Shown here in pieces: positions 62,245 through 63,150 of a DNA stretch of 64,000 bases (positions are counted from its first letter, which is position 1; every line of letters starts with the position of its first letter). The stretch lies in the NCBI RefSeq assembly GCF_057098645.1, contig NZ_CM169472.1. One strand, 5' to 3'. The notes under the pieces were generated by a model that worked only from the letters and a program-made list of their open reading frames with translations, ran no database searches and was not told the DNA's origin. The position numbers were made by a program, and so were the translations under genes.

Positions 62245-63150
62245 ATGAACCCCGCAGTGGATAATGAGTTTCAGCAGTGGCTTTCCCAAATCAATCAGGT
62301 ATGCGGAAATTTTACCGGACGCCTGCTGACTGAGCGTTACACGGGTGTACTGGAAACGCATTTTGCCAAAGGACTAAAGCTGAGCACCGTGACAACCAAC
62401 GGGGTGAATTTATACCGCACCTAGCAGGAGGTAAAAGGCAGTGACGATGCCTGGTTTTACACCGTTTTTCAGCTTAGTGGTCAGGCGATAATGGAGCAGG
62501 ATGAGCGTCAGGTGCAGATTAGCGCAGGCGATATTACGTTACTCGATGCCTCACGACCCTGTTCGCTTTACTGGCAGGAGTCTTCTAAACAGATTTCATT
62601 ACTTTTGCCACGCACTCTGCTGGAACAATATTTTCCCCATCAAAAACCTGTCTGCGCAGAGAGACTGGCTGCTGACTTACCTATGGTGCAACTCAGTCAT
62701 CGCCTGTTGCAGGAGAGCATGAATAACCCGGCACTTTCTGAAACAGAAAGTGAAGCTGCGTTACAGGCGATGGTGTGTCTGCTGCGCCCGGTACTTCATC
62801 AGCGGGAATCTGTTCAACCTCGTCGTGAACGTCAGTTTCAAAAAGTGGTTACGTTGATAGACGATAATATTCGCGAAGAGATATTACGCCCGGAGTGGAT
62901 AGCCGCAGAGACGGGTATGTCAGTACGTAGTTTGTATCGAATGTTTGCCGATAAAGGTTTGGTGGTCGCGCAATATATTCGTAACCGTCGTCTCGATTTT
63001 TGTGCAGATGCAATTCGCCATGCCGCAGATGATGAAAAACTGGCAGGCATTGGCTTTCATTGGGGATTTTCCGACCAGAGTCATTTTTCAACGGTGTTTA
63101 AGCAACGCTTTGGGATGACGCCAGGCGAGTATCGACGTAAATTCCGCTAA
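62245..63150 (+). pseudogene. feaR: feaR (AraC-family activator of tynA/feaB) with in-frame premature TAG at 62422-62424
   Basis: ATG at 62245 gives MNPAVDNEFQQWLSQINQVCGNFTGRLLTERYTGVLETHFAKGLKLSTVTTNGVNLYRT*, then the same frame continues QEVKGSDDAWFYTVFQLSGQAIMEQDERQ… to the AraC HTH C-terminus. Confidence 0.8.

Follow-up and report, generated by a model that had tools for sequence, protein, structure and literature searches.

The feaR locus carries an internal amber codon

The window, that is, the whole stretch of 64,000 nucleotides analysed here, contains feaR in the gene order known from K-12, between ydbL and the divergent feaB and adjoining tynA and paaZ (Table 1). FeaR is an AraC-family activator required for the expression of tynA and feaB (PMC4640556), which agrees with the role given to it in a preliminary description of this DNA, made from the sequence alone. 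The sole in-frame stop between the ATG at 62245 and the TAA at 63148-63150 is the TAG at 62422-62424, codon 60 of the frame. When this stop was replaced in a conceptual translation, FeaR matched the two profiles of its family: PF14525 (AraC_binding_2) at residues 12-185 (E = 3.9e-28) and PF12833 (HTH_18/HTH_AraC), the DNA-binding domain, at residues 219-299 (E = 3.3e-20). Owing to the TAG at codon 60, no single polypeptide encoded here contains both domains. A sense residue occupies position 60 in all 118 aligned FeaR sequences, which is the pattern of a nonsense pseudogene. We thus read the locus as a feaR pseudogene rather than as the gene of a functional FeaR.

Table 1. Features of the feaR, feaB, tynA and paa genes in the window, in order of position.
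Feature	Position	Strand	Remarks
paaY and paaX, regulatory genes of the paa cluster	49422..50944	-	Intact
paaK 3' remnant, 255 bp	51045..51299	-	Annotated 'incomplete; missing N-terminus'; AMP-binding_C_2 match; aligns to K-12 paaK
paaF'	51272-52030	-	Open in the window
Junction of the 4,951-bp deletion	51297..51300	.	4-nt microhomology; from comparison with K-12
paaE, paaD, paaC, paaB, paaA	to 55600 (paaC 53617-54363)	-	Open in the window
paaZ	55885-57930	+	Open in the window
tynA, periplasmic copper amine oxidase	58178..60451	+	Pseudogene in the window
TGA, codon 669 of tynA	60182..60184	+	TGG>TGA (W669*); sub-clade specific
feaB, phenylacetaldehyde dehydrogenase	60510..62009	-	Intact in the window
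feaB-feaR divergent intergenic region	62010..62244	.	Contains the FeaR-dependent feaB promoter (role from PMC4640556)
feaR pseudogene	62245..63150	+	301-codon frame with one internal stop; RefSeq annotation
59-aa N-terminal ORF (P0150)	62245..62424	+	Expected translation product
Amber TAG, codon 60 of feaR	62422..62424	+	Ancestral TGG (Trp); G>A at 62423
219-aa downstream ORF from Met83 (P0121)	62491..63150	+	Whole HTH kept; re-initiation possible but unsupported

The preliminary description had already given the frame as 62245-63150 with a single TAG at codon 60, had named the gene feaR and had placed the AraC-type DNA-binding domain downstream of the stop. Its coordinates and frame are confirmed, the identity of the gene is borne out by the domains, the synteny with K-12 and the RefSeq annotation, and the profile matches locate the HTH where it was expected. 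Its further statement, that a 59-residue peptide could not activate transcription, is supported as well. RefSeq independently marks feaR as a pseudogene.

K-12 MG1655 feaR (b1384) occupies the same locus, with the same synteny (ydbL-feaR / feaB-tynA-paaZ), the same 906-nt frame and the same two Pfam domains. The window allele differs from it at 28 nucleotides, which amount to TAG for TGG plus eight other amino-acid differences that represent ordinary allelic variation. Unlike the window, K-12 has intact tynA and paaG-K. A scan for consensus promoters and terminators around feaR gave no signal above shuffled controls.

Ancestral codon and amber suppression

Codon 60 is TGG (Trp) both in K-12 MG1655 and in the closest intact allele (strain H6); in the window, a G>A transition at 62423 has turned this TGG into TAG. 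The preliminary description had ascribed a Gln codon to K-12 at this site (CAG to TAG), which is wrong; CAG is the next codon, 61. It had also proposed that a supE-type tRNA-Gln would restore the wild-type residue, a claim that falls with the first: given an ancestral TGG, a supE tRNA would insert a non-wild-type Gln and yield W60Q. Position 60 is variable among the 118 aligned FeaR sequences (86 of them have Arg and 11 have Gln, whereas Trp is confined to E. coli), the residues found at this position being Arg, Gln, Lys, Thr, Asn or Trp. FeaR W60Q is thus probably tolerated, so that any read-through product would probably be active.

A suppressor (supE-type or other) or a near-cognate tRNA-Gln might read through the amber codon often enough to supply the full-length FeaR needed by its regulon. 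Even without a suppressor, E. coli places Gln at UAG with a low frequency, and UAG followed by C, the nucleotide found after the stop here, is a weak termination context. This reading would also profit from the 11 orthologues with Gln at position 60. The supE-type tRNAs, to which the search for suppressors was confined, speak against it. We searched for the supE allele using a probe with the CUA anticodon, which recovered the K-12 supE44 strains C600, DH5alpha and DH1 and was thus a working probe. The exact allele was found in 155 genomes, and the 45 matches listed are all K-12 laboratory strains, so that the probe alone is not enough to exclude O145 genomes. A direct look at the two tRNA-Gln(CUG) genes, glnV and glnX, of the O145:H28 strain RM13514 revealed no supE allele, both genes keeping the CUG anticodon, and the 64-kb window contains no tRNA gene. 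The stop is not conserved, as it would be at a programmed read-through or recoding site, the TAG being confined to one E. coli lineage. Furthermore, the target genes of FeaR have since been destroyed, feaB by Q151* in 20 of 26 genomes and tynA by W669* in the window, and such knockouts would be unexpected were the regulon still used. We consider it very improbable that read-through sustains the regulon.

Re-initiation at Met83

The first in-frame start after the TAG is the ATG at 62491 (Met83), from which a 219-aa ORF remains open. Ribosomes might re-initiate there, and the resulting protein might still activate tynA and feaB, perhaps independently of the inducer. Its complete HTH_18 domain would allow this, and the isolated C-terminal domains of some AraC/XylS activators show partial, inducer-independent activity. 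The product would, on the other side, cover only positions 68-173 of 173 of the sensor-domain profile, positions 1-67 (39%) being missing. Met83 is replaced by Ile in 80 of the 118 FeaR orthologues and is, therefore, not a conserved internal start. No good Shine-Dalgarno sequence was found in the 20 nt upstream of the ATG at 62491. A strong one, AGGAGGT, lies right after the amber at 62426-62432, with a spacing that suits a GTG at 62441 in another frame, which opens a 16-aa ORF. This 219-aa ORF has also accumulated two changes within the lineage, L155F (RM13516) and M291I (RM12275), both missense and none synonymous, and the genes that it would activate are being lost. An active protein made from Met83 is, in our judgement, a highly unlikely outcome. 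As a separate observation, the AGGAGGT corresponds to the native feaR codons 61-63 and could capture terminating ribosomes.

Distribution of the amber allele

We searched 5,426 complete E. coli genomes with a 61-mer centred on the TAG and retrieved exact matches in 26, all belonging to the O145:H28 group. The allele was thus present in 26 of 26 complete genomes of the O145:H28 type and in none of the other complete genomes. The 1.2 kb around feaR showed 100% identity to 23 complete genomes and 99.9% to 3 more, all of them E. coli strains that are either labelled O145:H28 or carry no label and belong to that type, and the next-best feaR allele outside this group reached only 98% identity. The feaR pseudogene annotated by RefSeq in O145:H28 (e.g. 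ECRM13514_RS10035) is identical in sequence to the window feaR. Both the 59-aa and the 219-aa ORF product recurred in public data (NCBI, ENA, Logan), each with at least 1,000 contigs to its record. SRR8751452, a short-read assembly made independently, matches the window without a difference across 48178-64000 (15.8 kb).

Among the points that the preliminary description had left to be checked were the base call and the state of feaR in related strains. The TAG proved real, with 26 complete genomes, at least 1,000 contigs and the SRR8751452 assembly in agreement, and among complete genomes it is confined to the O145:H28 group. The idea that the TAG arose by mistake during sequencing or assembly, with feaR really intact, has next to no chance of being right: 26 independently sequenced complete genomes carry an identical allele, both halves of the ORF recur on at least 1,000 contigs, and SRR8751452 is identical over 15.8 kb. 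This replication across independent assemblies excludes a base-call error.

Every member examined carries the TAG, and the stop is read here as inherited by the whole O145:H28 lineage. It is an ordinary pseudogene that is already flagged in public annotation. All eleven O145:H28-lineage records fetched bear the RefSeq/PGAP label 'transcriptional regulator FeaR, pseudo, internal stop', and the two halves of feaR have been deposited in GenBank as separate O145:H28 CDSs (AHG08682.1, which equals P0121, and BCZ67295/6).

Other truncated feaR alleles of E. coli end prematurely near the same place as the O145:H28 allele but lie in different genetic backgrounds and have far lower counts. Early truncations in draft data on other haplotypes include rare, independent stops at codon 60 (P0154, P0162) and a stop at codon 61 (P0152) on 33 contigs; feaR of FDAARGOS_943 contains an IS1 insertion. 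The cluster of FeaR fragments of 57-67 aa raised the possibility of a mutational hotspot near codon 60, which we rejected: the fragments were selected by length and some are partial sequences at contig ends. Since this set was retrieved by similarity to the 59-aa query, it is length-biased and uninformative about a hotspot.

Further lesions in the pathway block

The window contains a second nonsense mutation, tynA W669*, which did not appear in the preliminary description. Of the 407 positions of the Cu_amine_oxid profile, the truncated TynA covers no more than 2-324, so about 20% of the catalytic domain is lost. This TGA occurs in none of the 5,426 complete genomes, and we considered whether it was an artefact. 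We rejected this, as the 668-aa product was found on 21-24 public contigs (two counts) and the SRR8751452 assembly has the identical W669*. The mutation is taken to mark a real sub-clade of O145:H28. In feaB, which is intact in the window, a different lesion prevails in the lineage: Q151* (CAG>TAG) is present in 20 of the 26 O145:H28 complete genomes. All three nonsense mutations, in feaR, feaB and tynA, are G:C>A:T transitions. Both tynA and feaB are open in 6 of the 26 genomes, among them C325 and RM13516, which indicates that decay is incomplete and that some residual use of these genes is possible.

The paa cluster has been shortened by a deletion of 4,951 bp, through which the last 33 nt of paaF, the complete genes paaG, paaH, paaI and paaJ, and approximately the first 1,058 nt of paaK have been lost. 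An 81-mer spanning the deletion junction was found exactly in 25 genomes, all O145, that is, in 25 of the 26 genomes with the TAG, the exception being UTME-3. In this strain, the feaR TAG is present and the feaR region is identical to the window, while paaG, paaH, paaI and paaJ are intact; its paaF is frameshifted by a 7-bp tandem duplication. In addition, a 1-bp deletion in paaC causes a frameshift in all five of the feaB-amber genomes examined. Compared with RM13514, the window strain has gained tynA W669* and lacks both feaB Q151* and the paaC frameshift. With tynA W669* and the paaG-paaK deletion in place, repairing FeaR would not revive the pathway in the window strain.

The divergent promoter region between paaA and paaZ (55601-55884, 284 bp) contains three independent within-lineage SNPs, a dense set compared with the flanks: the feaB-amber clade has two of them, at the equivalents of 55743 and 55815, and Z1323HEC0422 has the third, at 55792.

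Decay pattern and probable order of the lesions

Besides the feaR stop, the lineage shows five disruptive lesions, every one of them inside the pathway block (13.7 kb), whereas the flanking genes compared (18.7 kb) have none; these counts are small. By our own arithmetic, 0.42^5 for all five in the block comes to about 0.013. In the seven sequences compared first, 11 mutational events lay within the block against 3 in the flanks (binomial p = 0.0065). With UTME-3 added, the figures became approximately 14-16 events in the block and 8-9 in the flanks, making the contrast in SNP density weaker.

UTME-3, which has the TAG together with intact paaG-J, would place the feaR stop before the paaG-K deletion. 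This suggests that the regulator was lost first, followed by the paaG-K deletion and then by the lesions of the sub-clades, an order that is drawn from one genome and presupposes that recombination did not bring paaG-K back. The simplest reading of the sub-clade lesions would put feaB Q151* and the paaC frameshift on one branch and tynA W669* on the branch of the window. The order could also be the reverse, with the paaG-K deletion coming first and depriving the upstream pathway of its value, feaR being lost later and UTME-3 regaining paaG-K by recombination; both lesions are confined to the lineage, and only one genome separates them. Re-acquisition requires an extra event. The feaR region of UTME-3 matches the window exactly, and over the shared 23 kb between the paaF junction and uspF, on that side of the deletion where feaR lies, the strain is 99.92% identical to C325. 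Moreover, TynA alone releases ammonia from phenylethylamine, so a paa deletion would not on its own deprive feaR of its use. We regard the reverse order as a minor possibility, and retain the loss of the regulator as the first step.

The comparison of UTME-3 (NZ_CP168984.1; locus L014, 3190-26470) with C325 over this 23-kb region showed an odd pattern, in that every coding SNP is non-synonymous and none is synonymous. These SNPs are located in paaC, paaZ, ynbE, ydbH (two), nifJ (two) and ompN. The ydbH L50P variant is specific to C325 and is not a change in UTME-3.

The pathway in other E. coli lineages

The part of the window from 44000 to 64000 is present to at least 80% in only 2,931 of the 5,426 genomes, the O157:H7 and B2 strains being without the block. 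In phylogroup A, the locus has been characterised as heterogeneous (PMC4951805). The pathway is dispensable and often lost in E. coli. The same pathway has been lost from O157:H7/O55:H7 and B2 strains, with the whole block missing (PMC3893438 for O157:H7/O55:H7). The O157:H7/O55:H7 lineage has been reported to share ancestry with O145:H28, and the phenylacetate-degradation genes were described as present in O145:H28, replaced by OI-67 in O157:H7 and absent from O55:H7 (PMC3893438). A PCR for tynA was negative in O157:H7 isolates (0/28) and positive in 40 of 49 non-O157 EHEC (PMC4640556).

In O145:H28, unlike O157:H7, the block is physically present and has been inactivated by point mutations and the 4,951-bp internal deletion. 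As a result of this physical presence, gene-presence surveys and tynA PCR score the pathway as present (PMC3893438, PMC4640556). The sequence thus qualifies the published contrast between O145:H28 and O157:H7: the genes are there, but the pathway is broken at several steps. The words pseudogene, tynA and feaB occur nowhere in the O145:H28 genome paper (PMC3893438), a paper on carbon metabolism in O145 does not mention phenylethylamine, tyramine or paa, and a survey of loss of function in O145:H28 covered virulence genes only. Metabolic inferences, and any ideas for controlling non-O157 EHEC by means of phenylethylamine, should not assume a working pathway. Within O145:H28, feaR W60*, the paaG-K deletion, feaB Q151* with the paaC frameshift, and tynA W669* offer cheap clade markers.

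Proposed course of pathway loss and the question of selection

Starting from the observed mutation, its ancestral state and its distribution, and from the other lesions and theirs, we infer a loss of activation, a relaxation of selection and a first hit in feaR. In the proposed course of events, to which we assign a probability of roughly 0.85, a single G>A transition (Trp60 to amber) inactivated feaR in the ancestor of E. coli O145:H28. Translation would yield a peptide of 59 residues and stop short of most of the sensor domain and of the whole DNA-binding domain. Functional FeaR would not be made, leaving the FeaR-dependent tynA and feaB promoters without their activator, and tynA and feaB would no longer be induced by phenylethylamine or tyramine. 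With feaR inactivated, the catabolism of these amines would no longer be selected, and the block would decay gene by gene. It would then have gathered independent disruptions in different sub-lineages: the paaG-K deletion, feaB Q151*, the frameshifts in paaC and paaF, and tynA W669*. The stop codon by itself is of minor importance, a routine pseudogene; the series of lesions would make a tidy example of pathway decay after the loss of an activator.

The loss may, in addition, have been positively selected, a reading that modifies the proposed course of events and does not replace it. Silencing of TynA and FeaB would then aid the EHEC lifestyle, for instance because H2O2 and aldehydes would not be produced in the periplasm, and would converge on the deletion of the cluster in O157:H7/O55:H7. 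This would fit a related lineage without the whole cluster (PMC3893438), the negative tynA PCR in O157:H7 isolates (PMC4640556) and the repeated independent lesions in tynA, feaB, paaC and paaF within O145:H28. The same repeated hits are, however, predicted by neutral decay after a regulator knockout. The block is also missing from many non-EHEC lineages, such as B2, and the structural genes are open in 6 of the 26 genomes. Positive selection for the loss is thus unlikely. A correspondingly small likelihood attaches to the reading that O145:H28 lost its aromatic-amine catabolism step by step and possibly under selection, with the regulator going first through the feaR amber. Were this true, the silencing of TynA and FeaB would be an adaptive trait of this EHEC group instead of neutral decay, and the published contrast between O145:H28 with and O157:H7 without phenylacetate degradation would be only apparent.

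Other differences across the window and the lineage

Several differences lie outside the genes discussed above. Between pdxI and paaY (approximately 49193-49367), a segment of about 175 bp is inverted relative to C325, RM13516, RM13514 and Z1323HEC0422, and the independent SRR8751452 assembly has it in the same orientation as the window. One of the breakpoints sits 2 nt before the start codon of pdxI, so that the leader of this gene is replaced; the other falls within a terminator-like hairpin, in its loop. None of the complete genomes extends across the left junction of the inversion, and no inverted repeats flank the segment. At approximately 40803-42112, ynbD is interrupted by an IS3-family element of about 1.31 kb that is 99.8-99.9% identical to many O145 copies. 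The complete O145 genomes all lack a copy at this position; in C325, one is located in ydcF instead.

The window differs from C325 by 9 SNPs in 14034-34134 and by one in 42100-64000. In C325 (L013, 28309-42396, against window 1-14033), a prophage-like insertion encoding a Rha regulator, terminase, portal and prohead protease lies beside a truncated hicB, whereas the window, like RM13516, runs straight into the core genes pqqU, patD, ydcR, ydcS and curA. In RM13514 (L016, 24951-30460), frameshifts were found in a methylaspartate (glutamate mutase) cluster, affecting methylaspartate ammonia-lyase, glmL and one hypothetical gene. The lineage may thereby have a second catabolic block in which several genes have turned into pseudogenes.
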